Assembly: GCA_034089705.1 (NCBI GenBank)
Contig: JAXDTZ010000013.1
Coordinates: 9,522 to 73,521, forward strand
Length of the DNA: 64,000 nucleotides
Origin: Candidatus Enteromonas sp.
GTDB lineage: Bacteria; Bacillota_I; Bacilli_A; RFN20; CAG-826
Direction of reading: 5' to 3'
The notes under the pieces were generated by a model. It saw nothing but the letters and a program-made list of their open reading frames with translations. It did not search any database and was not told the origin of the DNA. Position 1 is the first letter of the stretch. Every line of letters begins with the position of its first letter. Positions 1 through 63,369 of the stretch are shown here, in pieces. The translations under genes were made by a program, and so were the position numbers.

Positions 1-11
1 TTGGGGTTTCG

Positions 12-716: not shown

Positions 717-732
717 CCGCTTCGGCCAATCC

Positions 733-758
733 GCCATCCTCAGGATGGCTTTTTTCTT
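733..758 (+). terminator. rho-independent terminator
   Basis: Stem gccatcc (733-739) pairs with ggatggc (743-749), followed by a T6 run (750-755). Confidence 0.7.
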
Positions 759-794
759 ATGAAAATGGCCCGGATTTCTCCAGGCCCAATCGGT

Positions 795-6400: not shown

Positions 6401-6942
6401 TCCCCGTTCATTTCGTCGTCCCGGCCCCCCAAATACGGGGAGAGGTCCACTTGGTAACGGAGGGAATCCCCTTGGAATGCCTCGTCGAGGTTATCCTTGG
6501 GGAAAGCGACTTTGAAGAAGAACTGGTCGTCGTGGAGGAACAAGCCCAAGAAACGGGAGACCCCGTTGTAGGATATGGGCGCGTCCAAGGCCAAGGACAG
6601 GTTATGGACAGACAAACCATCCAGGCCGAAAGCCAAGGAAGAAGAAGAGAAGTCGATTTGGTTGGTAACCCTTTCGACGTTCCCGTCTACGTTCCCGTCT
6701 AGTTCGAAAATCCCCTCTTCGATTTGAAAGGTCACCCCTCCTTGCAAAGAGGCGGTGAAATCCCCCAGGAATTTCGATTTGGCTTCTTCCCCGTCGACAA
6801 ACGCGACGGAAGAGGAACTCTCCACGATCGGTTCCTTGCCCCCGTCGTTGATGAGGCGGCTTGGGGCGCAAGAAGAAAGCGCCAAAAAAAGGGAAGCAAA
6901 GGAGAAGAGGAATGGCGTCTTGGTTCTGCGGAAGCGTTTCAT
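3394..6942 (-). CDS. giant surface lipoprotein (1182 aa), paralog of 7888..11616
   Basis: Uninterrupted 3.5-kb ORF. The N-terminus MKRFRRTKTPFLFSFASLFLALSS|CAP is a signal peptide plus lipobox. It aligns collinearly with the 1242-aa neighbour (for example NFEYGELSWIIDNIMGVLSE vs SYEYGDLDFVIHDILEILSE). No enzymatic motif recognised. Confidence 0.8.
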   Translation of the reverse strand: MKRFRRTKTPFLFSFASLFLALSSCAPSRLINDGGKEPIVESSSSVAFVDGEEAKSKFLGDFTASLQGGVTFQIEEGIFELDGNVDGNVERVTNQIDFSSSSLAFGLDGLSVHNLSLALDAPISYNGVSRFLGLFLHDDQFFFKVAFPKDNLDEAFQGDSLRYQVDLSPYLGGRDDEMNGDVNFEYGELSWIIDNIMGVLSEEDVNLSGSSSFQWDWGVLASSLDRVFETRVDGKPYFIWPMQLQEGGTVYEIGLRSTSDYSFAGIDAPSVLSTASRMEFSAESRLRIRSSCFSKVGPLEWNPPSDASSYLPLTDSIGLIKRLARFLGNQDFSLDMDLSITHHEDAIPGTDTTFGREEVNEGLTIEGGLSVDMSSWALDQIGMDITLAYLEASKEGDSVSFAPNGQQNRIGLEVANLPENDKGIYVNLNDAVKIQTNKVTLDSLIGQFDGFSLPGSASSSGDGSVMSNLLSSLDSILRQIEELQKSEFGKGLSEGHYESILEALDTLSSQNESVLLSLNLEKAGLSGSMDIAFSGDPSLPLARIAFHEAQFAFFTLEGTIDLTDFSLIRLEGKEEYQELSHLPSLTEQLGVFVPSLEASASIEGYILKLGTESATSVSSYSRVEQGTEFSGSFAFSLQDQLGSGSLAITNKMDTYYEKHYVGVDVSGPEVSEDDALDNQMFLKYHSEGASSSPLQGRMSIHSLNSLLGVVESLSGNADPRFKRLTGLLSGASSASLISDITSGHFLHALSSDLISSLSIAPDVTTVVFPKTLFGLAEDLTVKLHFGEKRFHRDGQDPLVMEKALTKVEVFTKSGNEDSLSEIYIALTIEEFDIDLSAKNASGFDALHANFGPNPSLSSFTDFSSLTPLLSHVIDTMQLGVTESNSLTTYHLNGELKLNFKLGFSIPINSIPLDAFITLDGAEVNVYGRMELPKIDLAVFTAIPRKTTTEFFYHTDGKDTVGTLLLRRYQTWTTGILWNKKTYHEIQELKVSGSDFTANMLDWILFYMMAMDKDVYDQVYPNGQMAETTKGPINGEDALTTYSSGGTGDEPTWTIGLDIQELTGLSVSMNVTPTLTGCRVVSGSKTKTSIRRLTGSFDVVSVIVVNPDITMANLASETGGYGYRDAWNDASFNGATYDQVVNNSYSAISSTSKGIFEKFFFANGDYLDAVKNMPFTEKPPLNF

Positions 6943-7887: not shown

Positions 7888-10800
7888 TTACGCGGAGAGG
7901 CCGAGGTAGTAGTTCCGGTGGCCTTTGTTTTCCTCGTCGATGCCATGCCTCCAGGCTTTGCCGCCTTCCTTGTCGGTCGATTCTGCGTAGACGCCAACGG
8001 GGGAATAGGTGGCTTCGTCTTCGAAGTGGAGGAAGTTGCTTTCAAACGCGGCTTGCCCCTTTTCCCATCCGTCGAGGTATTGGCCCGCGACCAGGTTGTT
8101 GAGGCGAAGTTCGACTTTGGCGCGCAAGATGGACAAGCGGTTGCCTTGGTCCCCTTCCACCCCGACGCCGAGGTCGATGCGGACGAGGTTCAAAGCGTGG
8201 AAGGCCCCGAATTCCCCGCCTTCGATGTGGAGGACGATGTCATCGAGGATGTTCACACCCAAGAGGGAGTTGACGTTCAAGGTGAGGTCGAAGCTCACGA
8301 TTCCGTCTTCGGAAACGCTCTTTTCGAAGTTCTTGAAGAGGTCTTCGACGTGGATGGCTAGGGCCCGGGATGCCGGCTCGGTGTTCGAAGCGACTTCGAT
8401 GGAGTTCTCTTCCTTGGCGAAGAAGGATTCGTTCACCCCGAGGAAGTATTGGAGCATGTAGCTGAGCGCGTCGTCTTTGAAGGCGCCTTCGCGGTTGAGC
8501 TTGACCGAATCTTCGACGTTGGCAAGGCGGCCGTAATCGGAGTGGCGGGTCATGAGGAGCTCGCTGCGGATTTCCCCTTCGTCGTTTTCGATTCCGTCGG
8601 AATAATAATAGAAGGATGCGTCGCGTTGCCCGCCGATTTCCAGTTCGCGGAAGTAATGGGGGTCATCGGGGGCGTTCAACCCGCGGATGACGGGGATGTC
8701 GTTGAGCTCGCCATGGAGTTTGACTTGGGCCCCGCGGACGTAGGCTTGGAGGTTTGCTTCCGCGAGCTTGGCTTCGTAATCCCCCAGGGCGATCGAGGCC
8801 GCACCGGTCAGATCGTAGGTGCTATGGCCTTGGCCGTTTTCCATTCCGAGGGTCAGGGTGCTGACGAGGTAATCCCCAAGGCTCGCGATGCCCGTGAAAT
8901 CGATGTAGGAGGATTCGTGGTTGAGGAAGGAGAACTTCGTGTCCACGGTCACTTCTTCAAAGGAGAGGGAGAGGTCCACTTTCGTGGCTTGGCCTGGTTC
9001 CCCATTGACGAGGGACACGCCGATGTTTTGAAGTTTGGCTTCGTCGAAATGGAGGGAAAGAGCGATTTCCGCGTTCATTCCGAAGGGGCTTCCGTCGAGG
9101 ACGAAGCGATCGTTCGTCCCGTTGATGGTCGCTTCCTTCAAGAAGGAATAGTTCGCGATCGCGAAATAGTTCCCGGAAGTGAGGTCGGTGATGAGACTCG
9201 CTTCCGCGGGGGAAGAGAAGATGCGGGAGATGCGCTCGAAACGGCTATCGAAATTGCCAAACGAAGAGATGATCGGGGAAATCGCATCCACCGCGCTGGA
9301 GAGGTGGATTTTGCCGTTCAACCCGTTCAAATTCTCGGGATTGTCGCGGGCTTCGATGTCCGCGGAAGTGTCTTCGTTCAGCGAATCGTAATGGAAATAG
9401 ACGGCGTTGGAAGTCGAGGAGAAATCCTCTTCGCTATTGGCGATGTCGAGCACCACGTGGTGATCTTGGTAATACGTTGTCGTATGCTCTTGGAGGGTTA
9501 ACGAAACTCCCCCGTCGATCAAAGCGGGGTTGGTCGCCCCTTCTCCGGCAGCTTTGGAGAAGTCGAGGTTGATGGCTCCGGAGATGTCCATTCCGGTTTG
9601 CTTTTCAGGATCGTTGTAGACGTCCATCGTCCCTTCTTTGCGCACCGTCCCGGACAACGCGATGGAGGCTTGCTTGCCTTTCACGATCGAAGCGATCGGA
9701 TCGACCAAGGAAGGAAGTCGGTTCATCGAGGAATAGTTAGCCAAATCGCTCCGCGCTTCTTCGCTGAGGGGAGAATAGCCCTTGGTTTTGAGGGACAAAT
9801 CGAGGGTCAAAGTGTTGAGGGCAAGGTTTTCGAGGCGGAGGTTCAGCAAGGAATTGTCTTCGTTGCCGTTGAGTTCCAAAACGACGTTCGCCCCATCGAA
9901 TCCGAGGTTGTCCAAAGAAAGCACGATTTCGATGCGGTTATCTTCGATGGTGACCTTGGAAAGCATTTCCACGATGGCTTCGTAATGCTTTTCCTTGAGC
10001 CCGGCGATCAAAGCGGGTTCGTTGAAATCCTCTTGCCCTTTGAGGGTCTTGATGACTTGCGTCACTGTGTCCAAGACGCTTTCGAGTTGGGCGTCGGTGG
10101 TTTGCTCTTGCACGGTTTCCCCGGGGGTGAGGCTTTCGGCGGTGGAAGAGAATTTGCCGATCACTTCATCGAGGACCGTTTTGGTGGTGGAGGCTTTTAG
10201 CACATCCCCGAAATTGAGGTAGCAGGAGGCGTTGGAAGAATCGGAGTTATCGACGAAAGCGCTCAGCATTTGCTGGTTTTCGCCCAGTTGCCAGATTCCG
10301 TTTTCGTTCTTCTCGTATTGGGCGAAGCCGAGACTCGCCGCGGCGCTATTGAAGTTCACGCCTTTGATGTTGCCGTTATCGAATTGATAGGAGAGATCGA
10401 CGTCTCCGCTGAGGCTCAAACGGGCTTTTTCTTCCACTCCGGATTTAGAGAAGGCAGTCAAGGTTCCCGGTTTGGAATCTTCTTTATGGAGGAGGTCCAC
10501 GTCAAGTTCCAATCCGAACTTGGGGGTGGCGACAAGAGAAGCGACGCGACGGAACAAGGCGAGGGAGTCGTCGAGTTGAGGGTAGCTCGCCCAGGAATCG
10601 GGGACGGTCCAATCGTAGGTTTCCCCGCTCGCGGCGGTTTGGACGCTCGCAGAAAGGGAAAGCGTCATGCCGTTTCCGAATTCTTGGGAAGAGGCTTCGC
10701 TTAAGGCGCTGGGGATATCCACGCGGTTGCAATTCAAATTCTCATCCGCGCCAAGGCCGATGGACAAGGTGGTGGACCCCAAGGGCAGATCGAGGGTGAA

Positions 10801-11616
10801 GTATTTGCTGCCGTTAAAATCGGCTTCCGCGATCGTGTTGAGGGCGTTCATGATGTCGTCGGTCGAGATGGAAGAAGAGGAAGAAGCCTCCCCTCCTTCG
10901 GGAGCGGGGGTCGTTTGGTTCCCACTGCCGGTAATCAACGATTCGATTTTGCCATAGGTGTCGATGTTGATGCCGCCTTCGGACAAAATCTCGAGGATGT
11001 CGTGAATCACGAAGTCCAAATCCCCGTATTCGTAGGAGAGGTTGCCCCCGGTCACGGGATCGGTTTCCTCACTGACGTAACGCTTGACGTCGACTTGGTA
11101 CCCCGCGGTCCAATCCCCGTCGTCCCCATCGATGTCGCCGATGTTGAAATAGAGGTTCTTGGAAGTTTCCCCATCCCCGAGGAGCCCGAGGTTGAGTTCG
11201 CGCTTGAGCCCGTTGTATTCCAAAGGCAACTCGGCTTTGAGGTTAATCCCCGAAAGGGAGAGTTCCTCCAGGGACAAGGCGATCGAGGCTGGCTTGCTTT
11301 CGATGGAACGGATGTGGTTGTCGTAACGGACTTCTTGCCCGTCCACCGTCTTGGCGGCCCCGGGAATCATGAAATCCAGAGAATTCACTTCCAAGGTGAT
11401 GCCGCTGGTGGCGCTGCCGATGAGTTGGTTCACGAAGCGCTGGGGAATGCTGAGATCCCCGTTGCCGTTGGAAATCGGCCCCCCGACCTGATCGATGACG
11501 GTGCTTTGGGGAAGGAGGAGGAACACCCCTCCCGCGGACAAAGCGAAGGTCGCGGCGAAGCCCCCGCTTAACAGCAAGGCGCGTTGCCATTTGGATGATT
11601 TGACGTTCTTTTTCAT
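7888..11616 (-). CDS. giant N-terminally anchored envelope protein (1242 aa), paralog of 3394..6942
   Basis: 3.7-kb ORF. The preferred start is the ATG at 11616 (MKKNVKSSKWQRALLLSGGFAATFALSAGGVFLLL, a signal anchor), preceded by AGGGG. The ORF track's GTG at 11640 is the alternative. Collinear similarity to the 1182-aa lipoprotein. Confidence 0.8.
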   Translation of the reverse strand: MKKNVKSSKWQRALLLSGGFAATFALSAGGVFLLLPQSTVIDQVGGPISNGNGDLSIPQRFVNQLIGSATSGITLEVNSLDFMIPGAAKTVDGQEVRYDNHIRSIESKPASIALSLEELSLSGINLKAELPLEYNGLKRELNLGLLGDGETSKNLYFNIGDIDGDDGDWTAGYQVDVKRYVSEETDPVTGGNLSYEYGDLDFVIHDILEILSEGGINIDTYGKIESLITGSGNQTTPAPEGGEASSSSSISTDDIMNALNTIAEADFNGSKYFTLDLPLGSTTLSIGLGADENLNCNRVDIPSALSEASSQEFGNGMTLSLSASVQTAASGETYDWTVPDSWASYPQLDDSLALFRRVASLVATPKFGLELDVDLLHKEDSKPGTLTAFSKSGVEEKARLSLSGDVDLSYQFDNGNIKGVNFNSAAASLGFAQYEKNENGIWQLGENQQMLSAFVDNSDSSNASCYLNFGDVLKASTTKTVLDEVIGKFSSTAESLTPGETVQEQTTDAQLESVLDTVTQVIKTLKGQEDFNEPALIAGLKEKHYEAIVEMLSKVTIEDNRIEIVLSLDNLGFDGANVVLELNGNEDNSLLNLRLENLALNTLTLDLSLKTKGYSPLSEEARSDLANYSSMNRLPSLVDPIASIVKGKQASIALSGTVRKEGTMDVYNDPEKQTGMDISGAINLDFSKAAGEGATNPALIDGGVSLTLQEHTTTYYQDHHVVLDIANSEEDFSSTSNAVYFHYDSLNEDTSADIEARDNPENLNGLNGKIHLSSAVDAISPIISSFGNFDSRFERISRIFSSPAEASLITDLTSGNYFAIANYSFLKEATINGTNDRFVLDGSPFGMNAEIALSLHFDEAKLQNIGVSLVNGEPGQATKVDLSLSFEEVTVDTKFSFLNHESSYIDFTGIASLGDYLVSTLTLGMENGQGHSTYDLTGAASIALGDYEAKLAEANLQAYVRGAQVKLHGELNDIPVIRGLNAPDDPHYFRELEIGGQRDASFYYYSDGIENDEGEIRSELLMTRHSDYGRLANVEDSVKLNREGAFKDDALSYMLQYFLGVNESFFAKEENSIEVASNTEPASRALAIHVEDLFKNFEKSVSEDGIVSFDLTLNVNSLLGVNILDDIVLHIEGGEFGAFHALNLVRIDLGVGVEGDQGNRLSILRAKVELRLNNLVAGQYLDGWEKGQAAFESNFLHFEDEATYSPVGVYAESTDKEGGKAWRHGIDEENKGHRNYYLGLSA

Positions 11617-11636
11617 GTTGATACCCCTGTCAATGT

Positions 11637-12596
11637 TCACTGGTTATATCCGTAGGCTTTTAGCAAGGCCGCTTCGCTACTTGGATAGGCCGCGCTAGGA
11701 GAAGAAGGAGAAGGAATGGAGGCTAGGGAAGAATCCCCCGCGACGTAGACGGTCGTCATGCTGCCTTCGCAATCCGATCCGATTCCGTTGCTCAAGGTCG
11801 CGTGGTATTTCTCGTAACTCTTGAAGTAACGGAGGTCCAAGTCTTTGGTGAAACTCCATTGGAGATGGACGTATTCGAAGTTCGGGAAGTCCTTGAGGTC
11901 GCTGATGGTCTTCATCTGATGGATGTACCGCAGAGTCGATGTCTTCGGATCGGCTTCGAATTCCACCTGGATGTTCCCCAATTCGTCTTTGCTGACTTTG
12001 GTGAGGCCCCTGCCCGAACGGTCGACGGAAGAGTCCGTCTTGTCCGAGATGAGGTAGATGAGGGGCTCGCTGACCTTTCGCCCCATCGAGGAAGCGTATT
12101 CTTCATTGGTCACGTCCACGGGAGAATTCACCCCGTAGTTGGAGGATTTGCCCCAATACTTCGTCGTGGTTTCCCCTTTTTGGTACATGCGGTTGTAGAG
12201 GGCGACGAAGGAAGAGAAGGAATTGGATTCCTCAAAGTATTCCTCGCCGTTTTTGATGTTCCGGGATTGGATGGCTTGATCGACGAGGCCCATCGCCTTG
12301 GATGTCCCGACCCCTTCGGCGTAAGCGTATTCGTTTTGCCGGTATCTCTCGTAGGCGACGTAGACCATTTCGAAGGGTTTCATGTGGGCGGCGAAATCCC
12401 CGCCCATCTTCTTCGCGCTTTCGTAAGAGGCCAGCGCGGTCTTCCCATCGGGCACGTAGGCGCTCGCGTCCCCGGAAATGGAGAACAGGGTCGGTTTCAG
12501 TTTTTGGTGAACGGTCAACCCCGTCGCCGCGCCGCAAAAAAGGGCCATGGCGAGCAAGGTGGGAATCGTGAAGCTTTTGCTGACGAATTGACTCAT
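11637..12596 (-). CDS. membrane-anchored or secreted protein of unknown function (319 aa), first gene of the giant-protein operon
   Basis: N-terminal hydrophobic anchor (FTIPTLLAMALFCGAATGL), a GGAGAG RBS and an ATG at 12596. The stop lies 20 nt before the next gene's ATG. No family recognised. Confidence 0.7.
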   Translation of the reverse strand: MSQFVSKSFTIPTLLAMALFCGAATGLTVHQKLKPTLFSISGDASAYVPDGKTALASYESAKKMGGDFAAHMKPFEMVYVAYERYRQNEYAYAEGVGTSKAMGLVDQAIQSRNIKNGEEYFEESNSFSSFVALYNRMYQKGETTTKYWGKSSNYGVNSPVDVTNEEYASSMGRKVSEPLIYLISDKTDSSVDRSGRGLTKVSKDELGNIQVEFEADPKTSTLRYIHQMKTISDLKDFPNFEYVHLQWSFTKDLDLRYFKSYEKYHATLSNGIGSDCEGSMTTVYVAGDSSLASIPSPSSPSAAYPSSEAALLKAYGYNQ

Positions 12597-24825: not shown

Positions 24826-25065
24826 TCTCAAATTCGAATACACGTCCCCCTTGTTTTTGGTTATTTTCTGTTCTTCGCATAGCCAATAAAACGCCTCCCA
24901 GGCTTTCGGATTTCTTCGTTTTGGAACCATTCACCCTTCCGTTTCTTTCTTGCCCTCGCGCGATTTGTTTTCCTTTTTCCCGAAAAACAGGATAAACTTC
25001 CTTTCGTGAGACGCTTAGCTTTGTTAAACGGCGCGATCGTGCTTTGCCCAAAAGGGCTGAAAACG

Positions 25066-25590
25066 ATGTCGGATTACGTCAACGAATATCCCGACGCTTC
25101 TTTTTCGCATTTGAGTTTGGAAGAACTCGCCCGCCTCTTTTTCGTCCCTTTGTCTCCTAAGCTTTATTCGGAGGTCGCTTCGATCATCCCGTTGTCCCAA
25201 GATGGCGTTTCCCTGTTGCTTTCCCTTTTCCCGTCCCATCCGGTTTCCCCTCGCTTTCAATCCATCTCTTCTCTGTCCCTTCCCCCAAAACGCGTGGAAA
25301 AAGCTTTCTTTCAAAAGAAAAACGTGGTGATTCTCGGTTATCATCCCCTCGCGGGAAGGATCTTCGCGAGCATCCTCCAAGAAGTCCCCAATCTCTCTTG
25401 CTCTTGGGGGGTGGGCGATTTTGGAAAAGCGGAAGGCTTAGGCGTCCCCATGTTGGAAGAACTCTATGCCGCCTTAAATGATTCGGAGCTCGCCGAACTC
25501 TCTTTGCCGAGCAAATCGCGCTTTGAAGGCGCGAGAAAGGAGGAACGTCAATGGAACATGGCTCCCGCGACGGATTCGAGCAATTGCTGA
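25066..25590 (+). CDS. hypothetical protein (about 174 aa)
   Basis: ORF in a consistent frame. The ATG at 25066 (MSDYVNEYPD) has AAAGGG 9 nt upstream, and a GTG at 25006 is the alternative. The 3' end overlaps the next gene by 40 nt. No family recognised. Confidence 0.45.
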   Translation: MSDYVNEYPDASFSHLSLEELARLFFVPLSPKLYSEVASIIPLSQDGVSLLLSLFPSHPVSPRFQSISSLSLPPKRVEKAFFQKKNVVILGYHPLAGRIFASILQEVPNLSCSWGVGDFGKAEGLGVPMLEELYAALNDSELAELSLPSKSRFEGARKEERQWNMAPATDSSNC

Positions 25591-26663
25591 ATTCCCTTGC
25601 CGTCGACAAATCCTTCGACCGCGACTTCCTTTTCGAAGTCTACGAAACCTGCCTTCAAGGCGCCAAAGAGATGGGAGAGGGGGATTTCCATCTCGCCGAC
25701 CTCGGCATCAACGGGGTCCAACTCGTCCTTTACATCGTCAACGAGCACGCTTTTTACCTCCAAACCCATCCTCAAACCCCTCAGGAGGTTCTGATCGAAG
25801 ACGAGAACTATTTTTCCTTGCTCGCCTCCATTGCCCTCGACAAATATTTCACCAACGAGCGCCTCGCCTTCAAAACGGGATCCCGGGCATCCCGTTATAG
25901 CCCCTTGATGTCCACTTTGGACCTCTATTTGAATTTCATTCTGGGGATGCTTTCCCGTTATTCCCGAAACGACCCGGAACGCACCTTGGTGATCGACGTC
26001 ATGGCCAAGGGATTCTCCGTCGCTAAATGCGTCGCCGAACTCCTCGAAGGGGGATACGAAACGGAAGCCTTCTCCACCTGGCGCACCCTTCACGAGAACG
26101 AATGCATCCTCCATATTCTCGTGAAATACGGGGAACCGGCCATCCGCAGTTATTTGCGGCACATCCAATACGGAATCGCCTTCCGCGTGGGCCTTGGCAG
26201 CAAGGAAGCGACCGATGAGATGTTCGTGGAAATCAAAGACAAGATGCATGCGGTCGGGCTCAAATCCAAGGACACCAAACGCTTCATCGAATACGGCTGG
26301 TTGCTTGCCGTCCCCGGGGTCATGGATACCCCCAATTTCAAATTCAATTTCCGCGACGGCGTCGAATCCGTGGCGAACCTCTCCCATTATTCCAAGGTCT
26401 ACGAGATGTCGAGCGAGGTCACCCATTCGAGCCCCGTCCTCATCTATTCCAAGAAGAATTATTTCTTTTACCTGACGTTGCTTAGCCTCTACGAATCCTT
26501 CTTCCGGTTAGAAAAGATCTTCGCTTCCCTTTACACCTCTTCGGTTTCCCCTCAAGAAAAAGAAGGGTACTCCCGCATGAGAAAACTCTATTTCGGGGAA
26601 TTGATGGCCGCCTACCAAGAAGCCAAAAAATCCTTCTCCGAGATATCCAAGAAAAAGGAGTAG
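25551..26663 (+). CDS. hypothetical, predicted mostly helical protein (370 aa)
   Basis: Strong RBS GAAAGGAGG 7 nt upstream of the ATG. The central segment (AKCVAELLEGGYETEAFSTWRTLHENECILHIL) is reminiscent of DUF5677-type helical proteins, but this rests on recall only. Confidence 0.6.
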   Translation: MEHGSRDGFEQLLNSLAVDKSFDRDFLFEVYETCLQGAKEMGEGDFHLADLGINGVQLVLYIVNEHAFYLQTHPQTPQEVLIEDENYFSLLASIALDKYFTNERLAFKTGSRASRYSPLMSTLDLYLNFILGMLSRYSRNDPERTLVIDVMAKGFSVAKCVAELLEGGYETEAFSTWRTLHENECILHILVKYGEPAIRSYLRHIQYGIAFRVGLGSKEATDEMFVEIKDKMHAVGLKSKDTKRFIEYGWLLAVPGVMDTPNFKFNFRDGVESVANLSHYSKVYEMSSEVTHSSPVLIYSKKNYFFYLTLLSLYESFFRLEKIFASLYTSSVSPQEKEGYSRMRKLYFGELMAAYQEAKKSFSEISKKKE

Positions 26664-26710: not shown

Positions 26711-27160
26711 TTAAGCGAGGTAGCGAAGAAGTTTCTTCATGTCTTCTTCGTGGTCGTCGTCGACGAAGTCGTCGATGATTTCCATCGCGAGGGCCGCCAT
26801 GCACTCTTCGGTCGGCATGTATTGGACGGAGCGGCTCAAAACGAGGAAGTAACGGCCGTGTCCGCGGCGGGAAATGCAGGCCTTGACGAGGTCGTATTTG
26901 TCGTTGAAGGAGTTGACGGCGATGAGGGAATCGGCGGAAACCTTGTATTCGTCGAAGACGGCTTCGATGTTGGCGTAGCCGTGGTTGCCGATGGTGCCGT
27001 GGATGGCGACGGCGGCTTTGTCGAGGCTCTTGACGGTGATCGAGACGCTGTAACGGAAGAAGTCTCCGTCGATCTCGCTCTTATCGAGGTGGACGCCCAA
27101 GTTGTCGAAGCGGCCTTCGATGAGGCGCTTCATTTTGTTCAAATCGTAATTGACGCTCAT
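26711..27160 (-). CDS. small acidic-tailed protein, paralog 2 (possibly YbjN / secretion-chaperone-like)
   Basis: 149 aa with an AAGGAG RBS. It starts MSVNYDLNKMKRLIEGRFD and ends in an acidic tail, DDFVDDDHEEDMKKLLRYLA. It is collinear with the upstream paralog. The fold assignment is tentative. Confidence 0.65.
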   Translation of the reverse strand: MSVNYDLNKMKRLIEGRFDNLGVHLDKSEIDGDFFRYSVSITVKSLDKAAVAIHGTIGNHGYANIEAVFDEYKVSADSLIAVNSFNDKYDLVKACISRRGHGRYFLVLSRSVQYMPTEECMAALAMEIIDDFVDDDHEEDMKKLLRYLA

Positions 27161-27178: not shown

Positions 27179-27625
27179 TTAGTCGAGAAGGTAGCCGAAG
27201 AGTTTCTTGACCGATTCTTCGTTATCGTCGTCAAGCAAGTCGTTGATGACGCCCATGGAGAAGCCGGCCATGGCTTCTTCGGTGGTCATGTATTGGGTTC
27301 CGCGGTTGAAGACCAAGCGGTAGGTGCCGTTTTGCCCGCGGCGGGAAATGGTGGCCTTGCAGAGGTTGCAGGCATCGTTGAAGGCATTGATGGCGATTAA
27401 GGAGTCCGCTTTGACGGCGATTTCGCCGAAGACGCACTCGAAGTTGCCGAATCCGTGGTTTCCGATGACCCCGCGGAAGGTGAAGTTCTTCTTCATGAGG
27501 GTCAAAGCCGCGCGATAACGGAGGAAGTCCCCGTCGATCTCGATGGATTCGAGCTTGAGGTTGAGTTCGTCGAAACGTCCTTGGATGAGACGTTTCATTT
27601 TGTTCATATCGTAATTAACACCCAT
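27179..27625 (-). CDS. small acidic-tailed protein, paralog 1 (possibly YbjN / secretion-chaperone-like)
   Basis: The internal ATG at 27625 (MGVNYDMNKMKRLIQGRFD) has an AAGGAG RBS 6 nt upstream and matches the paralog's N-terminus. The ORF-track start at 27718 has no RBS. Confidence 0.65.
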   Translation of the reverse strand: MGVNYDMNKMKRLIQGRFDELNLKLESIEIDGDFLRYRAALTLMKKNFTFRGVIGNHGFGNFECVFGEIAVKADSLIAINAFNDACNLCKATISRRGQNGTYRLVFNRGTQYMTTEEAMAGFSMGVINDLLDDDNEESVKKLFGYLLD

Positions 27626-27827
27626 AGTTAACTCCTTTTCAGTTAGTGAAATCATAAAGTCAAGAAGTGGATTTTGCAAATCAAAAGAAACCAAATAAGA
27701 TTCGATAAATGCTTTCATATCAAATTATTTGCATGTATTTTGGCGCTATTTTGGCACTTACATAGTAAATTTTCGCGTGCGCGAAGTCCTGTTTCGCGTC
27801 AAAATAGTACTCAGGAGGCATTTTTCT

Positions 27828-30800
27828 ATGGCCGAATTCCACATCAGCATCCGTTCGTCTTCCAAAGGGGAGGAGGAAACCGTCTCGCTTCTAAGCGAGA
27901 TTCTGGGCATCGATTCCATCGAAGCCCAAATGCTGCTTTCTTATATCCCCACTTCGGTGTATGTCGGGGAAGACCCCGAGGAAGCCAGAGACGTGCTCGA
28001 AGAGCTAATCTCCGCCGGATTCGACGCTTCTTGCGAAAACTTGCCCCCGGTTTCCGAACCTACCTCTTCCCCAGAGGTTGGGGGACTCAGCGACGATCCG
28101 GAAGGATCCCATCGCAATCCCATCGATTTTCACGGGGGAAAAATCGACATCCGCTTGACCGGATATTCCCAAGGGAAAGAACAGGCTCTCGATTCCCTGC
28201 AAACCGCCTTGTCTATTTCGGAAGACGCCGCGAAGGATTACCTTGACGGCATGCCCGTAGTGGTCGCGACCCACCTCGACCGGGAAACCGCCTCGAAGGT
28301 TTACCAAGACTTGGTGAAAGGGGGCATCGTCCTCGAAGTCCTCGGAGGGGCGATTCCCGAAATGATGACTTCTTCCCATTTGCTCATCCAAGGCACTGGC
28401 CCCGACGACACCGCCTCCTACGAAGCCATCGCTAGCATCAAGAAAATCTCCTTGATCGAAGCGATGGAACTCTTTTCCCACACCCCATTTGAACTCGAGA
28501 TGGAAACCCTCGACGAGTTCGAACTCATCGTGGCCTCGAAAACCGCATACGTCTTCGCCGATTCTTCTTCCGAACCCAAAAGCGAAGAACAAGGCGGGGA
28601 ACCCCGCATTTCCATCACTTCCATCGGCCCCGACGACGTGGCGAGCTACCTTGCCCTCGCCGAGGTCCTCGGCATCGACATGGTCGAAGCCATGGGCATG
28701 CTCTCCCGTTACCCCTTCGACATCCTGAAAGGGGAAACGGACGACGTCCTCAAAAAAGCCGCGGAAACCCTTAAAAAAGCCGGAATCACCTTCGATCTCG
28801 TTTTGTCGGAAGGCTCCGCTTTCGTCTCCCCGTCTACCCCGAAAACCTCCCAGACCGCGGAAGAACGCCTCCGCGAACTCGTGGGGTTATCCACGGTCAA
28901 GCGCCAAGTGGAGATGATCAAAGCCTACGTCAAGAAGAACGAAGGCATGAAGAAATCTTTGAATTTGAACATGGCCTTCCTCGGAAACCCCGGGACGGGC
29001 AAAACCATCGTCGCCCGCTTGATGGGGGAAATCCTCCATTCCATCGGGGCCCTGCCCTCCTCCCGCGTGGTCGAATGCTCCGCGAAGGATTTGATCGCCG
29101 GATACGTGGGGCAAACCGCCAAATTGACCGATGAAAAGATCGAAGAAGCGATGGGAGGGGTCCTCTACATCGACGAAACTTACGCGATCAACCCCAAGGA
29201 AAACCCCTATGGCAAAGAATGCGTCGACACTTTGCTCAAAGCCATGGAAGACCGCCGCGGGGAAATCGCCTTCATCTTCGCGGGCTATCCCGCCCAAATG
29301 CAGGAATTCCTCGAATGGAACCCCGGCCTCGAAAGCCGCGTCAAATTCCTCATCCCCTTTGAGGATTACAACAAAGAAGAACTCAAGAAAATCCTCCAAA
29401 TGCAATTGCGGAGCGACGATTACGAAATCACCCCCGAAGCCCTCGACGCCCTCACTTCCCTCGTGGACAGCAAGCGCTATTCCCCGCGCTTTGGCAACGG
29501 GCGGGAAGCGCGCACCGCGCTAGAGAAAGTCGAATTGATCCAAGCCTTGCGCACGAGCGAAGAGAAGGAAGACCGCTTGATCGGCATCGAAGACATCGCG
29601 GAATACGCCAAAGAAAACGGGCTCATGATGCTCGAAAGCGATGCCCCGGAAGGAGAAGCCTTTCAGGCCCTCCAATCCCTCATCGGCCTCGACGAAGTCA
29701 AGGAGAACGTCTCCGATTTGATTTCCTATTTCGCCCAAAACCGCGGGAAAACCCAAAAAGTCGATTTCCACATGGCCTTCCTCGGCAACCCCGGGACGGG
29801 CAAAACCATCGTCGCCCAATTGCTGGGCAAGATTCTGTTCCAAGAAGGCATCCTCCCCTCTTCCCGCTTCCTTGAAGTGAGCGCCCCCGACCTCATCGCC
29901 GGGTACGTTGGCCAAACCGCGATCAAAACCCGGGAAGCCATCCAAAAAGCCCTCGGGGGAGTCCTTTTCATCGACGAAGCCTATGCCCTCGCGACTTCCG
30001 GCAACGCTTCCTTTGGGGAAGAAGCGATCGCCGAACTCCTCAAAGCCATGGAGGACCACCGCGGGGAATTCGCGGTCTTCTTCGCCGGCTACCCCAAGGA
30101 GATGAACCAGTTCCTCGTCCGCAACCCCGGCCTCCAAAGCCGCGTTAAATTCACGATGAATTTCGCGGACTACACCTATTCCGAACTCCTCCAAATCGGG
30201 GAAGGCATCCTCAAAAAAGACGAATACGAAATGGCGGACGCCATCCTCCAATCCTTGACCCGTTACGTCTTCTCCCGCAAGAAAGAAAGGGGATACGCCA
30301 ACGCCAGGACTTTGCGGGAAGCCATTTCCAGCGTGGAAATCAAGCACGCCGGGCGCGTGGCCCACGGGGAAGAAGCGGACCGCCAAATCACGATGGCCGA
30401 CCTTTACGCGGCCTTTGGAAAAGAAAACATCCCCAGCGAATTTGATTCGAGCGACGCTTCCCCCGCCCCGAGGATGATCCCCTTGACCCGATTCTACGAA
30501 GATCAAGAAAAAATCCCTCCCCATAGCGTCGCGAGTTCCCTCGAAGAGATTTCGGAAGCCGTCGTCGCCATCTCCACGGAAGGGGAAGAAGGCGGAGGGG
30601 AATCTTCGGGCTTCCTCGTTTCCGAAGACGGCTACGTCGTCACCTGCGCCCACTGCGTCCGCGGGGCCTCGACCATCCGAGTCCGCCTCCGAATCGTCCA
30701 TCGCGGACGGACCGTGGACACCCATTACGAAGGAAAAGCCGTCGCCGTCGACGAAGAAAACGACGTCGCGATCCTCCACATCGAAGGCCAGGGCCCGTTC

Positions 30801-31151
30801 CCCTATCTTCGACTCGAACGGCAAGGCGCCCTCGATTTGCCCCCGTTATCGGAAGTTTATCTCTTAGGGTATCCGTTTGGGGTATCGCGCTTCGATTCCT
30901 TATCGGTCAACCAAGGCAAAATCGCCTCTTACCAACGGGGACATGAAGGCCGTCCCGACCAGATCAACTTAGATATCTCCGCCAAATCGGGGAATTCGGG
31001 TTCCGCGGTCCTCGACGCCACCTCGAGCTTCGTCATCGGCATCCTCTGCGGCTCCTCCACCTCCCAATCGGGTTCCTTGGTCGAAGAGATCAATTACTGC
31101 CGCCCCGTCTCTTACGTCTATTCCTTGATTCGGCAAAAGCAAACGGATTAA
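27828..31151 (+). CDS. multidomain protein: 4x ribosomal L7/L12-CTD-like repeats + 2x CbbX/SpoVK-type AAA+ ATPase modules + C-terminal trypsin-like serine protease (1107 aa)
   Basis: AGGAGG (27813-27818) lies 9 nt before the ATG. Walker A GNPGTGKT occurs twice (aa 386-393 and 653-660), with Walker B VLYIDE and VLFIDE. Protease triad context: TCAHC (His942), NDVAIL (Asp979), GNSGS (Ser1057). The N-terminal repeats (aa 1-70, 103-172, 183-245, 258-327) align to the L7/L12 C-terminal domain. Confidence 0.85.
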   Translation: MAEFHISIRSSSKGEEETVSLLSEILGIDSIEAQMLLSYIPTSVYVGEDPEEARDVLEELISAGFDASCENLPPVSEPTSSPEVGGLSDDPEGSHRNPIDFHGGKIDIRLTGYSQGKEQALDSLQTALSISEDAAKDYLDGMPVVVATHLDRETASKVYQDLVKGGIVLEVLGGAIPEMMTSSHLLIQGTGPDDTASYEAIASIKKISLIEAMELFSHTPFELEMETLDEFELIVASKTAYVFADSSSEPKSEEQGGEPRISITSIGPDDVASYLALAEVLGIDMVEAMGMLSRYPFDILKGETDDVLKKAAETLKKAGITFDLVLSEGSAFVSPSTPKTSQTAEERLRELVGLSTVKRQVEMIKAYVKKNEGMKKSLNLNMAFLGNPGTGKTIVARLMGEILHSIGALPSSRVVECSAKDLIAGYVGQTAKLTDEKIEEAMGGVLYIDETYAINPKENPYGKECVDTLLKAMEDRRGEIAFIFAGYPAQMQEFLEWNPGLESRVKFLIPFEDYNKEELKKILQMQLRSDDYEITPEALDALTSLVDSKRYSPRFGNGREARTALEKVELIQALRTSEEKEDRLIGIEDIAEYAKENGLMMLESDAPEGEAFQALQSLIGLDEVKENVSDLISYFAQNRGKTQKVDFHMAFLGNPGTGKTIVAQLLGKILFQEGILPSSRFLEVSAPDLIAGYVGQTAIKTREAIQKALGGVLFIDEAYALATSGNASFGEEAIAELLKAMEDHRGEFAVFFAGYPKEMNQFLVRNPGLQSRVKFTMNFADYTYSELLQIGEGILKKDEYEMADAILQSLTRYVFSRKKERGYANARTLREAISSVEIKHAGRVAHGEEADRQITMADLYAAFGKENIPSEFDSSDASPAPRMIPLTRFYEDQEKIPPHSVASSLEEISEAVVAISTEGEEGGGESSGFLVSEDGYVVTCAHCVRGASTIRVRLRIVHRGRTVDTHYEGKAVAVDEENDVAILHIEGQGPFPYLRLERQGALDLPPLSEVYLLGYPFGVSRFDSLSVNQGKIASYQRGHEGRPDQINLDISAKSGNSGSAVLDATSSFVIGILCGSSTSQSGSLVEEINYCRPVSYVYSLIRQKQTD
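28971..29016 (+). repeat. 46-nt segment 45/46 identical to 29772..29817 (P-loop region of AAA module 1)
   Basis: atggccttcctcggAaaccccgggacgggcaaaaccatcgtcgccc differs from the second copy only by C at the variable position. Confidence 0.9.
29772..29817 (+). repeat. 46-nt segment 45/46 identical to 28971..29016 (P-loop region of AAA module 2)
   Basis: See the partner copy. Confidence 0.9.
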
Positions 31152-42869: not shown

Positions 42870-43365
42870 TCGAGCCTTCCGCGTCGTTTCCTGGGTTTTG
42901 TTTGGCTTAGGCGCCACGCTCATCATCGTATTCGCGGCGACCCCCGGAGGCATCAGTTCCCAAGAAAGCGGAATCTTCTCTTCCTTCGTGAAGTCCGTTT
43001 TAAATTTCTTTTCTCCGGGAATGATCAACGAATCCAACGAAGATCTCTTCCACGCGATATTACGAAAACTCATCGGGCATTTTGGCTTATTCGGCTTTAC
43101 GGGATTCTTCGGATATTTCGCCTTTTCTTCCACGGTCGCCCATCCCCGTCATGCGTTTTGGTTCCATTTATTGGAAGACCTTTCCGCCGGATTATTGCTG
43201 GGATTTGGCTCCGAAGCCATCCAACTCATCCCCGGATTGTCCCGAAGCGGAGAGTTCGCGGACGTCGGGATCGATCTGTCCGGTTATCTCTTGGGGCTTT
43301 TGCTCGCCGCTCTTATCTGGTATCTCGTCGAAAATGCCAAAAAGAAGAAGCTAACGGCGGAATGA
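42847..43365 (+). CDS. VanZ-like membrane protein
   Basis: TM-rich protein with a VanZ-like block (LRKLIGHFGLFGFTGFF). The ATG at 42847 was chosen. The longer track ORF starts inside ppa. Confidence 0.5.
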   Translation: MRNSQPVNRAFRVVSWVLFGLGATLIIVFAATPGGISSQESGIFSSFVKSVLNFFSPGMINESNEDLFHAILRKLIGHFGLFGFTGFFGYFAFSSTVAHPRHAFWFHLLEDLSAGLLLGFGSEAIQLIPGLSRSGEFADVGIDLSGYLLGLLLAALIWYLVENAKKKKLTAE

Positions 43366-44769
43366 AATCTTCTTCGCGTTTGCGAACGCTTCTTTGATTC
43401 GGCTGGGAATCTCGCGGATGAAGGCGCTTTGATAGGGGCCTAAGACCGCTTGCCCGGGGACATTGCCCCGTTTGACGTATTTATGCGGGGTGTATTGCAC
43501 TTCCCCGTCTTCTTTTTTGCTGGCGAGCAAGGTCAAGCAACAGGCGGTGAACACCTCTTCGTTGCTGGGGTTATCCTTTTGGAGGATGAGATGGGCCCCA
43601 TGGGCGTTTTTGACGTGGAACCATAACCGTTCTTTTTTGGTGGCGTACAAAAAGGAGAGGCAATCGTTTTGAATCGCGTTTTTCCCAAACCAATAGGAGG
43701 TGCCGTCAATCTCCACTTTAAAAGGCAAAGACGCCTTGTCCCCTAGAGGAGACTTCTGGATGATATCGTTTTCTTTTCCCTGCAATTGGAATTCCCCGGC
43801 GAGCTGTTCGAGGGCGGATTCCTCGGAATGGGACAGCGCGTCGAGCAATAACGCATACCGTTCTCGCTCTTTTTCCGCCAAAGCGAGGAATTCTTGGCTT
43901 CGTGCGATCGTGGTTTTGGCTTTCTTGGCCCGCGCGAAAAAAGCTTCCGCGTTCTGAACGAGCGATTTCTTGGGATCGAGGGCCACTTTCGTCCCATAAT
44001 AGTCCATCTCCCCGGTTTCGGGATGCAGGGAATCGAGGTAAGTGAAAATGAACTGGCCGTATTCCCCGTCTTGGAGATGGGCGCTGGCGGCATCGATGTC
44101 TTTGAGGATGTTGCCGATTTTCCGTTCCACCGCCTTCTGCTTGGTCTTCAACGTTTTGACGAGGCTTTGGAAACGGAAATTCTTCCTCGCTTCAAACAAA
44201 GCGCGTTCCTTTTCCTTGGCTTCCAAAAAATAAGCCTCGATATCGAGTTCGGAGGGAATCTCTTTCTTAGCGACGAACGGCGCAGGCAATTCGTATCTCC
44301 CGCCTTTGAGCAAAATCCTCGAATCCGACAGGGAGGAATACCGTTTGGCGATCAAGATGGTATCCGTTTCATCCAGTAGTAAAAGGTTCGCGTGATGGGG
44401 GATGAGCTCTACAATCAAAAAGACGGTTTGCTCTTCGAAAATCTCGTTCGTGGTCCGAAGGGAGAAACGGACGATCCGTTCTCCGGGATACGTCGAAACC
44501 CCCAGGATTCTCGCGTGAGACAATTTGCTGCGGAAATAACTCGAAATCGGGGTGGGCAGGCCCGTGAGGGTCAACGGGGTGTCTAGCAGGGCGACGTAAG
44601 GGTCTCCGCTATCGACGTTGATCAGCAATCGGCCGCTTTTGGAGGTGGCAAAACTCCACGCGTTCTCGGAAATCTGCACGCATTTGGATAGGTATTGCCC
44701 CGCCAAGATCTCATCGAGGCGGTTGGCTAGCAAAGCCAATTGGATGGAAGATAAGGCCATGGGTATCAT
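43351..44769 (-). CDS. rqcH: RqcH / FbpA (NFACT-family ribosome quality control protein), short form
   Basis: NFACT-N-like N-terminus, a central coiled coil and a DUF814/NFACT-R block (WFGKNAIQND...WFHVKNAHGAHLIL). The start is taken at ATG 44769, with 44760 as the alternative. The track's extension to 45537 is antisense to the HD gene. Confidence 0.75.
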   Translation of the reverse strand: MIPMALSSIQLALLANRLDEILAGQYLSKCVQISENAWSFATSKSGRLLINVDSGDPYVALLDTPLTLTGLPTPISSYFRSKLSHARILGVSTYPGERIVRFSLRTTNEIFEEQTVFLIVELIPHHANLLLLDETDTILIAKRYSSLSDSRILLKGGRYELPAPFVAKKEIPSELDIEAYFLEAKEKERALFEARKNFRFQSLVKTLKTKQKAVERKIGNILKDIDAASAHLQDGEYGQFIFTYLDSLHPETGEMDYYGTKVALDPKKSLVQNAEAFFARAKKAKTTIARSQEFLALAEKERERYALLLDALSHSEESALEQLAGEFQLQGKENDIIQKSPLGDKASLPFKVEIDGTSYWFGKNAIQNDCLSFLYATKKERLWFHVKNAHGAHLILQKDNPSNEEVFTACCLTLLASKKEDGEVQYTPHKYVKRGNVPGQAVLGPYQSAFIREIPSRIKEAFANAKKISFRR

Positions 44770-44838
44770 TATGGGGATTGGGGGAACGAATGCAAGTTCC
44801 CTCTTTTCAAACAAGGCCTCCTTTCCTAAAATGGCCTC

Positions 44839-45861
44839 ATGCACAAACCCTATTATTGGAAAGAGCCCATCCCGGATTTCTTGGAAGAAGCGAGGTACCA
44901 ATCTTCCCTTCTTCGCCTGGATGAAGTCGGGATGCATTGCGGTTTGGAATACACCCTGTTCGATTATTTTTCTTCCGTCGCCCCCTATTCCCGTTACGAG
45001 CATTCCTTCGGGGTAGCCCTTTTGGCCTACCATTTCACCCACGACAAGAAGCAGGCGATCGCGGGGCTCTACCACGATTTGGCCACCCCCGTCTTTTCCC
45101 ATGTCGTCGATTTCGTGATGGGGGACCACCTGAAGCAAGAAGCGACAGAACAACCGACCCGTTACCTTATGACCCACGACGCCGAAATCATGGAGTATCT
45201 CAAGAAACAGGGCGTCGAAGTCGAAGAGGTCGTCAATTACCACCTCTACCCCATCTGCGATTGCCCCGCCCCTAAACTCTCCTGCGATCGCCTCGAATAC
45301 ACCTTGTCGAACATTCTGAAATTCCAACTCGGCGATTGCTTTGAGGTCCGCAAATGCCTTCAGGACCTCGAAGTGGGCAAAAACGAATTCGGGGAGGACG
45401 AAATCGTTTTCAACACCCCCGAACTCGCCTCCTATTTCGGCCAACGAATGCTCATCCTCGCCCATCAATACACCCGCAAGGAAGACCGTTACGCGATGGA
45501 AGCCCTCTCCCGATTGCTCAAAGAATGCATTCTCCACGACGTCTTCACCTTCAACGATCTCTACTATTGGGGCGAACCCGACCTCATCGACGCGATCGAA
45601 TGCAGTTCATTCCATTACTCTTGGGCGGTGTACCGTTCCCTCTACCGCGTGGAGGACGTTCGCCTCGAGGATCCCCAAGCCCTGTTCACCCAAGCGATCC
45701 CCACGAAGAAGCGTTACATCGATCCCTACGTGAAAGGGAAGGGGAGATTGTCCCAAATCGATCCCGAGTTCGGAAAGAAACTCCAGGAATTCCTCCAACA
45801 GGATTTCCAAGAAGAACTCACCGGTTATTCCTCTTCTTTGCGCCCCTCCATTTACCGGTAA
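44839..45861 (+). CDS. HD-domain phosphohydrolase
   Basis: HD motif context YEHSFGVALLAY...AGLYHDLATPVFSH. Length 340 aa. Confidence 0.7.
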   Translation: MHKPYYWKEPIPDFLEEARYQSSLLRLDEVGMHCGLEYTLFDYFSSVAPYSRYEHSFGVALLAYHFTHDKKQAIAGLYHDLATPVFSHVVDFVMGDHLKQEATEQPTRYLMTHDAEIMEYLKKQGVEVEEVVNYHLYPICDCPAPKLSCDRLEYTLSNILKFQLGDCFEVRKCLQDLEVGKNEFGEDEIVFNTPELASYFGQRMLILAHQYTRKEDRYAMEALSRLLKECILHDVFTFNDLYYWGEPDLIDAIECSSFHYSWAVYRSLYRVEDVRLEDPQALFTQAIPTKKRYIDPYVKGKGRLSQIDPEFGKKLQEFLQQDFQEELTGYSSSLRPSIYR

Positions 45862-60272: not shown

Positions 60273-60303
60273 AAAAATAGGAACCGACCCGGTTCCTATT
60301 TTT
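60273..60303. terminator. bidirectional rho-independent terminator
   Basis: aaaaataggaacc-gaccc-ggttcctattttt. The stop codon of the minus-strand gene (60296-60298) lies inside the 3' arm. Confidence 0.75.
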
Positions 60304-63361: not shown

Positions 63362-63369
63362 AGATCCTC

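Follow-up and report, generated by a model that had tools for sequence, protein, structure and literature searches.

A 64,000-nucleotide stretch of the genome of Candidatus Enteromonas sp. (assembly GCA_034089705.1, contig JAXDTZ010000013.1, positions 9,522 to 73,521; hereafter the window) carries a gene whose product joins four homologues of the C-terminal domain (CTD) of ribosomal protein bL12 to two tandem AAA+ modules and an S1-type serine protease. Directly upstream of this gene, and divergently transcribed from it, stands a partner gene encoding a small protein of about 142-151 amino acids (aa), predicted to fold like YbjN and present wherever the large protein has an L12-type N-terminus. 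The reading that we prefer, with a probability of roughly 45%, is that the two genes constitute a rare module in which a single-chain AAA+ serine protease would dock the YbjN-like partner through its L12-derived array and would serve an accessory role in conflict or stress. Within this composite reading, the description as an ATP-dependent protease is much more secure than either the docking of the partner or the conflict role.

The reading frame of the large gene is open throughout from the ATG at 27828 to the stop codon at 31149-31151 (Table 1). The closest database match of the product is 99% identical and is recorded as 'AAA family ATPase [Candidatus Enteromonas sp.]' (P0001, assembly GCA_034180695.1), and the source lineage is one of gut metagenome-assembled genomes. 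The Kyte-Doolittle maximum over any 19-residue stretch is 1.43, so that no transmembrane helix is indicated. A first-pass annotation, made from the letters of this DNA, had described a 1107-aa product read from an ATG supported by a ribosome-binding site and devoid of transmembrane helices, with four L7/L12-CTD-like repeats at aa 1-70, 103-172, 183-245 and 258-327, two CbbX/SpoVK/EccA-type AAA+ modules with intact Walker A and B motifs, and a chymotrypsin-fold protease with a His942/Asp979/Ser1057 triad. Start, frame and the three structural claims (repeats, AAA+ modules, protease triad) all hold in the analyses described here, the motif positions given at that time (Walker A 386/653, Walker B 445/712, H942, D979, S1057) are exact, and the domain layout is most naturally read as that of a self-contained cytoplasmic AAA+ protease, as proposed then. 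The part of that interpretation that the sequence does not support is its mechanism, in which the repeats act as decoys of the ribosomal stalk.

Table 1. Coordinates in the window of the large gene, its domains and its divergent partner genes.
Feature	Position (nt)	Residues (aa)	Strand	Remarks
Large-protein open reading frame	27828-31151	1107 aa	+	L12-CTD x4, AAA+ x2, S1 protease
Shine-Dalgarno sequence AGGAGG	27813-27818		+	9-nt spacer before ATG; direct sequence reading
L12-CTD-like repeat 1, diverged	27834-28037	3-70	+	repeat HMM, independent E-value 5e-20
L12-CTD-like repeat 2, diverged	28140-28352	105-175	+	PF00542 match and repeat HMM
L12-CTD-like repeat 3, canonical family type	28371-28568	182-247	+	repeat HMM
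L12-CTD-like repeat 4, canonical family type	28599-28811	258-328	+	AlphaFold2 model, Foldseek
AAA+ module D1	28860-29627	~345-600	+	PF00004 and AAA_lid_6
AAA+ module D2	29661-30437	~612-870	+	PF00004 and AAA_lid_6
S1 chymotrypsin-fold serine protease domain	30540-31148		+	His942, Asp979, Ser1057; reaches the protein's C-terminus
Partner copy A, more canonical	26711-27160	149 aa	-	196 bits against the partner HMM of other lineages
Partner copy B, more diverged paralogue	27179-27625	148 aa	-	160 bits against the partner HMM of other lineages
Divergent intergenic region	27626-27827		.	palindrome inside; putative shared control region

The repeats are defined by a hidden Markov model (HMM) iterated on the N-termini of the large protein and six homologues, which delimits 21 repeats, four in the large protein and two to four per relative. 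Its envelopes in the large protein (aa 5-66, 107-171, 184-243 and 260-324, with independent E-values of about 1e-19 to 1e-25 each) agree with the boundaries proposed earlier. When the N-terminus is searched alone, the Pfam family PF00542 matches aa 109-169 at E=1.7e-5, with a score of 25.5 bits that falls just below the gathering score of 25.9 bits; 12 of the 21 family repeats match PF00542 individually (best E=3.2e-8), and the repeat profile aligns with solved bL12 CTDs end to end (positions 2-69, E=1.2e-8). The AlphaFold2 (AF2) model of repeat 4, with a predicted local distance difference test score (pLDDT) of 95.4, has the topology b-a-a-b-a-b, where a stands for helix and b for strand. Foldseek places it on 1CTF with template modelling scores (TM) of 0.87/0.90 and a root-mean-square deviation of 1.4 Å over 68 columns. 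The first eleven matches of this model in the PDB are all CTDs of bL12 or bL12m, while ClpS ranks lower at TM ~0.66. The four repeats are thus true homologues of the bL12 C-terminal domain. In 5.8 billion sequences, a profile search with the repeat alignment gave no match at E<=1e-3, so large a database being out of reach for such a short domain. The N-terminal dimerisation and L10-binding domain of bL12 (PF16320) has no credible match, one repeat reaching E=0.055 only; the first repeat begins at residue 3 and the AAA+ modules come after the repeats, unlike the layout of stalk bL12. The linkers between the repeats are flexible, and acidic or rich in Ser/Pro. A second HMM, built from repeats of other lineages only, gives 5.9, 5.7, 29.1 and 34.5 bits for repeats 1 to 4 of the large protein, and in the lineage formed by the window and the related P0002 loci it gives about 6-13 bits for repeats 1 and 2 and 29-42 bits for repeats 3 and 4.

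Both AAA+ modules carry a complete set of catalytic motifs. D1 has Walker A GNPGTGKT at 386, the pore loop GYVG at 425, Walker B VLYIDE at 445, AGY at 485, NPGLESR at 498 and the sensor-2 motif GNGREAR, and in D2 the corresponding motifs are GNPGTGKT at 653, GYVG at 692, VLFIDE at 712, AGY at 753, NPGLQSR at 766 and ANARTLR. In the NCBIfam ranking of the large protein, SpoVK (TIGR02881, 428.9 bits) comes before CbbX (TIGR02880, 384.7) and EccA (TIGR03922, 319.9), and the closest solved structure to D2 is CbbX (3ZUH, E=1.5e-44), with EccA1 next. In particular, the AGY at aa 485 and 753 aligns with that of CbbX, the SpoVK-EccA-like clade's sensor-1 GY signature, and the sensor-2 arginine is kept (GNGREAR and ANARTLR align with CbbX ANARSIR). 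In NPGLESR and NPGLQSR the Asn and the Arg at Asn+6 are present, but the residue at Asn+4, an Arg in CbbX NPGFRSR, is E or Q. Judged by sequence, the two modules belong to the SpoVK-EccA-like clade.

The C-terminal domain is recognized by Pfam as Trypsin_2 (E=3e-23, 83.5 bits against a threshold of 27.6) and as Trypsin (42.7 against 20.6). Its motifs TCAHC (H942), NDVAIL (D979) and GNSGS (S1057) are in register with those of Deg1 (TNYHV/KDVAVL/GNSGG) and with HTRA1, and TCAHC resembles the TAAHC motif of S1A proteases. No PDZ domain is found among the 25 best Pfam matches listed for the large protein, and the HtrA equivalog level is not reached (degP_htrA_DO, 60.5 bits against a cut-off of 416). 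The catalytic His is flanked by cysteines (TCAHC, 30642-30656, aa 939-943) in nearly all relatives checked; further cysteines lie near aa ~1075 and ~1090, with LCGSS in L12-type members and INYCRP in most of the sequences read (INFCRP in one, FCRP in another). Cysteines in a cytoplasmic protease domain could mean redox or metal regulation. In PADLOC 2.0 the large protein matches known defence families at the domain level only, namely RT-Protease_XI (E=4e-16), LmuA (E=1e-13), IetA (E=4.5e-10) and also Avs1b, and it is the trypsin-like domains of RT-Protease_XI, LmuA and Avs1b that its protease resembles. The partner and the neighbouring genes have no PADLOC match.

The partner, which the first-pass annotation had not noticed, is newly recognized here and is strictly paired with the L12-type N-terminus. 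It is present in 8/8 lineages with such N-termini (hmmsearch E 1e-63 to 1e-79), that is, in the window and at the P0002 loci, with two copies each, and at L006, L007, L011, L014, L015 and L016; it is missing at the two independent non-L12 loci examined (L008/L009 and L010). Apart from the synteny of the window and the P0002 loci, everything around the gene pair differs between lineages, and therefore the large gene and its partner represent a two-gene cassette. The two copies in the window are paralogues with 57% identity. In the window/P0002 lineage the presence of two extra, strongly diverged repeats (repeats 1 and 2) coincides with that of one extra, more diverged partner paralogue, a coincidence that, as a single event, is no more than suggestive.

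No Pfam family matches the partner at E<=1, including YbjN and helix-turn-helix (HTH) or other DNA-binding domains; a search of its profile against PDB sequences returned nothing at E<=10, and PHROGs has no match either for the partner or for the N-terminal region of the large protein. The AF2 model, obtained from only 4 sequences, has a pLDDT of 87.5 and a predicted a-b-b-b-b-a-b-b-a fold, for which Foldseek finds YbjN (6VU7, E=2.7e-4, TM 0.55-0.59), AmyR, DR_1245, SycH, CesT and SycE; compared with viral structures, the fold has no significant match. The partner is also very rare, as it occurs in 1/185,579 species representatives of GTDB (on the L007 contig, already known), scans of JGI metagenomes and IMG/VR found nothing, and a word-indexed protein search retrieved two close relatives only. 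In the intergenic region that separates the divergent genes, a perfect palindrome (TTCGCG-TG-CGCGAA, 27772-27785) lies ~40 nt before the start of the large gene and is a candidate operator; a scan for promoters and terminators gave a result not above chance.

The partner might be a mere transcription regulator of the large gene, with the array recruiting some other client or promoting multimerisation. The divergent arrangement and the palindrome in the shared intergenic region would fit such a role, as would the PDB label of YbjN 6VU7 as a 'putative transcription regulator', that of AmyR as a repressor, the DNA-binding domain of T4 MotA among the weaker fold matches, and the description of inserted L12/ClpS domains in vWA-MoxR systems as multimerising (PMC7159879). 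We nevertheless regard this alternative as unlikely. The acidic character of the partner (pI 4.65-5.5, net charge -2 to -9) speaks against DNA binding, and the partner matches no HTH or other DNA-binding family; its best fold matches are protein-binding, chaperone-like modules, it is duplicated in the same lineage that has two extra repeats, and its presence follows the type of N-terminal domain and not the AAA-protease core. A YbjN/type-III-chaperone-like partner would be a better candidate for the ligand of the repeats than the translational GTPases.

The latter had been proposed as the ligands by the first-pass annotation, in which the repeats imitate the stalk and serve as decoys for EF-Tu, EF-G, IF2 or RF3, recruiting these factors and feeding them to the unfoldase-protease, thus shutting down translation in stress or phage infection. 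The factor-binding face of bL12 includes K65, R73 and K84 as conserved basic residues, further to those contacted by EF-G. The contacts of EF-G with bL12 involve V66-V68, K70, L80 and E82 (PMC5887453). Residues at these positions were compared with those of 273 control repeats, drawn from 141 further L12 arrays outside the ribosome (Table 2).

Table 2. Residues of the factor-binding face (E. coli bL12 numbering) in the repeats of the large protein and in control repeats from other non-ribosomal L12 arrays.
Position	Large protein (repeats 4/1/2/3)	Control repeats
K65-equivalent	D/E/Q/D	K 78%
K70-equivalent	L/S/D/E	K 77%
R73-equivalent	A/S/Q/A	R 55%, K 29%
L80-equivalent	M/S/E/L	L 84%
E82-equivalent	E/E/A/E	E 71%
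K84-equivalent	M/Q/K/M	K 74%

None of the four repeats keeps K65, K70 or R73, and K84 survives in a single one; most of the substitutes are acidic or neutral. Since the other non-ribosomal arrays keep the canonical residues, the loss is specific to the L12-AAA-protease family. The face of helices 4 and 5 bears instead a signature of the family's own, [DN]-[DE]-x3-Y ... S-x2-E-A-M ... P, in which position 69 (Ile in bL12) is Tyr, K84 is Met and Pro91 is invariant across the family. Stalk mimicry retains some arguments, as the homology of the repeats with the factor-binding domain is genuine, their most conserved surface is that of helices 4 and 5, E82 is kept in 3/4 and A83 in 4/4 repeats of the large protein, and K or R occupies the K70-equivalent in 14/21 and the R73-equivalent in 13/21 repeats, in more distant lineages. 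A precedent is also provided by the Lit protease, which cleaves EF-Tu as a phage-exclusion mechanism. The idea is weakened by the substitutions found, including those of I69 by Tyr and K84 by Met across the family, and it leaves the strict pairing with a YbjN-like protein unexplained; we regard it as distinctly unlikely. The helix 4/5 face would rather be conserved for another ligand, for which the partner is the obvious candidate.

The distribution of the module was analysed in the best 120 homologues of the large protein, 42 of which have the protease domain. L12-type N-termini form eight clusters (P0001-P0008), each with 1-4 sequences out of ~15 billion, and about two dozen protease-bearing relatives have in their place an unrelated N-terminal region of ~340 aa that matches no Pfam family, apart from one weak MORN match. 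L12-type members keep Walker A and B, the pore-loop Tyr, the GY, the SR arginine and the sensor-2 Arg in both AAA modules, as well as TCAHC/GNSGS, and the latter two motifs recur in almost every checked relative that has the core layout of two AAA modules and a protease. In most non-L12 members (P0019, P0034, P0049, P0066, P0074 and others) D1 is degenerate, with Walker A unmatched and DD or YD for DE in Walker B, while D2 and the triad are intact. Eight relatives have four AAA modules (P0009/P0016/P0017 are 1689 aa long, and the P0016 cluster has 84 members), and two, P0083/P0095 (1288 aa), have a C-terminal Macro domain, TCAHC/GNSGS not being found in these Macro-domain variants; several accessory domains thus occur in combination with the core. 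P0007 (831 aa) was considered as a natural variant without repeats and rejected, as a run of N in the scaffold had truncated the gene call; the open frame at this locus (L016 5368-8493) holds L12-type repeats, and the locus also has the partner gene. In phage and plasmid collections there are relatives of the AAA modules only, none of them with the full architecture.

The genes that flank the module vary among lineages and include ATP synthase/glpK, DUF1846, glycolysis genes and CotH. The window and the P0002 loci are syntenic, their proteins being 70% identical and belonging to two species. These features bear on whether the protein could be a Lon-like housekeeping protease for quality control in gut Bacilli with small genomes, its array perceiving misfolded or ribosome-associated proteins and the partner acting as a general co-chaperone. 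A chromosomal position amid housekeeping genes, a normal GC content, synteny in two species and the conservation of all catalytic motifs are consistent with such a function, and Lon and FtsH are precedents for single-chain AAA+ proteases. Such a role is improbable for a module as sparse as this one, with clusters of 1-4 sequences and a partner in a single GTDB species representative, with a location that differs in every lineage and with swappable N-termini; in addition, the targets of those clade members that are known are narrow (PMC11513918).

In the reading that we favour, the two CbbX/SpoVK-type modules would assemble, by homology with CbbX, into a hexameric double ring, in which the pore-loop tyrosines of both modules (GYVG) would thread the polypeptide and hand it to the S1 protease domains fused at the C-terminus. 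The four L12-CTD-derived domains on their flexible linkers would represent a recruitment array, as do the N-domains of Lon, ClpA and Cdc48, and a hexamer would bear up to 24 of them, resulting in a capture device similar to the tethered CTDs of the stalk. The most likely dedicated ligand of this array is not a translational GTPase but the YbjN/type-III-chaperone-like protein encoded next to it, and the partner may work as an adaptor that presents clients, may inhibit as a pseudo-substrate, or may be a pro-effector that cleavage releases or activates. For the module as a whole, an accessory function in stress or conflict, such as triggered proteolysis during phage infection, would be favoured over housekeeping because the module is sparse, its location shifts between lineages, its N-termini are swappable and its protease domain resembles defence-system proteases at the domain level.

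Several observations weigh against this reading. The Asn+4 arginine of CbbX NPGFRSR is E or Q in D1 and D2, and those members of the CbbX/SpoVK/EccA clade that have been characterized serve as chaperones that remodel narrow targets and not as motors for degradation (PMC11513918). Co-occurrence with the partner is based on eight related lineages and only two independent negative loci, and it is from co-occurrence that we infer binding of the partner to the repeats; only 4 sequences underlie the model of the partner, whose fold matches have TM-scores no higher than 0.5-0.59. A small divergent partner could be a regulator instead of a ligand, and the PDB label of YbjN and the MotA match point the same way. 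As for the conflict role, the large protein has no full-length system match in PADLOC 2.0, no defence or mobile-element genes are evident near the module, the GC content around it is not deviant, and the synteny of the window and P0002 loci fits a stable chromosomal function.

The biology of the clade could also be reconciled with the protease in another way, if the AAA+ modules remodelled one target and left it undegraded, and the protease made a single activating or self-processing cut, in the manner of the trypsin-like domains that activate pro-nucleases in defence systems. Remodelling is what known clade members do (PMC11513918), pairs of a trypsin-like protease and a pro-enzyme recur in immune systems (PMC12799240; bioRxiv 10.1101/2025.09.03.673762), and RT-Protease_XI, LmuA and Avs1b have protease domains similar to that of the large protein. 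We find this very unlikely, as no nuclease or metallo-β-lactamase (MBL) pro-enzyme is encoded nearby and pore-loop tyrosines are present in both AAA modules, consistent with processive threading; if the partner were a pro-effector, it would overlap with the preferred reading. A bolder version of the latter, to which we also give a low probability, similar to that of stalk mimicry, is that the stalk-derived array has been exapted for substrate capture in a class of single-chain AAA+ serine proteases not recognized before, which, gated by the YbjN-like protein as a dedicated chaperone or inhibitor, would destroy a translation-associated target upon a phage or stress trigger. If true, this would be a new mechanism of abortive infection or growth arrest and the first degradative member of the CbbX/SpoVK/EccA clade, with a translational GTPase or another ligand of the L12 CTD as the target.

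Other genes around the module are mentioned for completeness. An uncharacterized 194-aa open reading frame (ORF; 25006-25590, + strand) overlaps the gene of a 370-aa DUF5677 protein (25551-26663, + strand), which has a weak match to a PHROG of unknown function (E=4e-5); only in the window and at the P0002 loci does this pair adjoin the partner genes. In the 70%-identical relative, two extra genes of 241 aa and 274-284 aa, absent from the window and with no Pfam match, sit between the large gene and a PRK-like gene (L002 12333-13998, L013 4614-6279). Further away in the window there are three consecutive large minus-strand ORFs (3394-6942, 7888-11640 and 11637-12596; 1181, 1249 and 318 aa), for which Pfam gives nothing at E<=1e-5. 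The large flanking minus-strand ORFs were considered as rpoB/rpoC near a true rplL, which was rejected as they have no Pfam match, and there is no other L12-type ORF in the 64-kb window. A 727-aa NFACT_N protein (43351-45537, - strand), an RqcH-like ribosome quality control factor, is encoded ~12 kb off with no evident link, and a 1054-aa protein (60296-63463, - strand) has as its sole recognizable domain a C-terminal EAL of the c-di-GMP phosphodiesterase type, its ~800 N-terminal residues being unmatched.

The arrays used as a control deserve consideration in their own right. In an exhaustive profile search of representatives, 982 proteins reached E<=1e-3, of which 70 reached E<=1e-10, and the non-ribosomal L12-array proteins (including P0123-P0271) are 127-3776 aa long, with 2-11 tandem L12-CTD repeats. 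All of the 97 that were scanned match PF00542 strongly, and among them fusions occur to TIR domains (TIR_2 in 6, TIR in 4), LRR, zinc ribbons, a dynamin-like GTPase and SPOR; an AAA or protease domain is found in none of the other 149 listed array representatives. Non-ribosomal L12 arrays are apparently a large, undescribed class. They keep the canonical factor-binding residues and are therefore better candidates for true stalk mimicry than the large protein, a role that they may have in immunity, and these arrays, some of them fused to TIR, merit a study of their own.

Compared with known systems, the large protein is of a kind already known, the single-chain AAA+ protease, in a domain combination that is unprecedented, and no paper describing its architecture was found among open-access papers. 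Lon and FtsH likewise carry a recruiting N-domain, an AAA+ unfoldase and a peptidase on one chain, with intact catalytic motifs in the large protein, and by analogy the predicted order would be to recognize, unfold and degrade; the large protein differs in that its peptidase is S1 (His/Asp/Ser) and not S16 (Lon) or M41 (FtsH), and in having two tandem modules of the SpoVK/CbbX/EccA clade, an L12-CTD array as N-domain and no membrane anchor. Modules that pair an AAA-type ATPase with a serine protease in phage defence (IetAS, Lamassu LmuA, Avs1 and the class XI reverse transcriptase-protease system) are similar at the domain level, whereas the large protein has no full-length model match and no nuclease or MBL partner; the protease of IetS is subtilisin-like. 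The partner, in turn, has its best structural matches, by its predicted fold, in the YbjN/AmyR/DR_1245 and type III secretion chaperone group, whose members are likewise small and acidic, but at the sequence level it matches neither Pfam YbjN nor any chain in the PDB, and no secretion system is encoded nearby.

With CbbX, SpoVK and EccA the large protein shares the best sequence and structure matches, the GY sensor-1, the sensor-2 Arg, AAA_lid_6 and a variable N-terminal recruitment domain, and it departs from them in being fused to a protease, in having tandem and not single modules and in the change of the Asn+4 Arg to E/Q. A 2024 survey describes this clade as having no peptidase association, unlike other classical AAA+ proteins (PMC11513918), a generalization to which the large protein is a counter-example. 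Domains of the L12 type have been noted outside the ribosome, in NTPase-centred and conflict contexts, namely vWA-MoxR conflict systems (PMC7159879) and Lipocone neighbourhoods (PMC12419801); there the domain is inserted once in a vWA protein or fused to an HTH, with no AAA+-protease fusion or YbjN-like partner described. The same group of Aravind classes the folds of L12 and ClpS together as the 'L12/ClpS' domain (PMC7159879, PMC12419801). ClpS, which has a related fold, is the substrate-selecting module of the AAA+ protease ClpAP, while the domain of the large protein is clearly of the L12 type (TM 0.87 vs 0.66), is fused in cis and occurs in 2-4 copies in the family. Stalk bL12 itself offers a homologous CTD, with several flexibly linked copies that recall the 4-6 CTDs tethered to the stalk, and is distinguished by its N-terminal dimerisation/L10-binding domain and by the basic face residues that are replaced here, where the array is part of an enzyme and not of the ribosome. 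Collectively, these comparisons suggest that one more architecture of ATP-dependent proteases exists in addition to those of Lon, FtsH, Clp, HslUV and the proteasome, in which the bL12 CTD, best known as the dock for ribosomal GTPases, would have been recruited as the recognition array of an unfoldase, in parallel with ClpS for ClpAP, and in which the linked YbjN-like gene, be its product a ligand, an inhibitor or a pro-effector, provides a testable handle on the poorly understood YbjN family.

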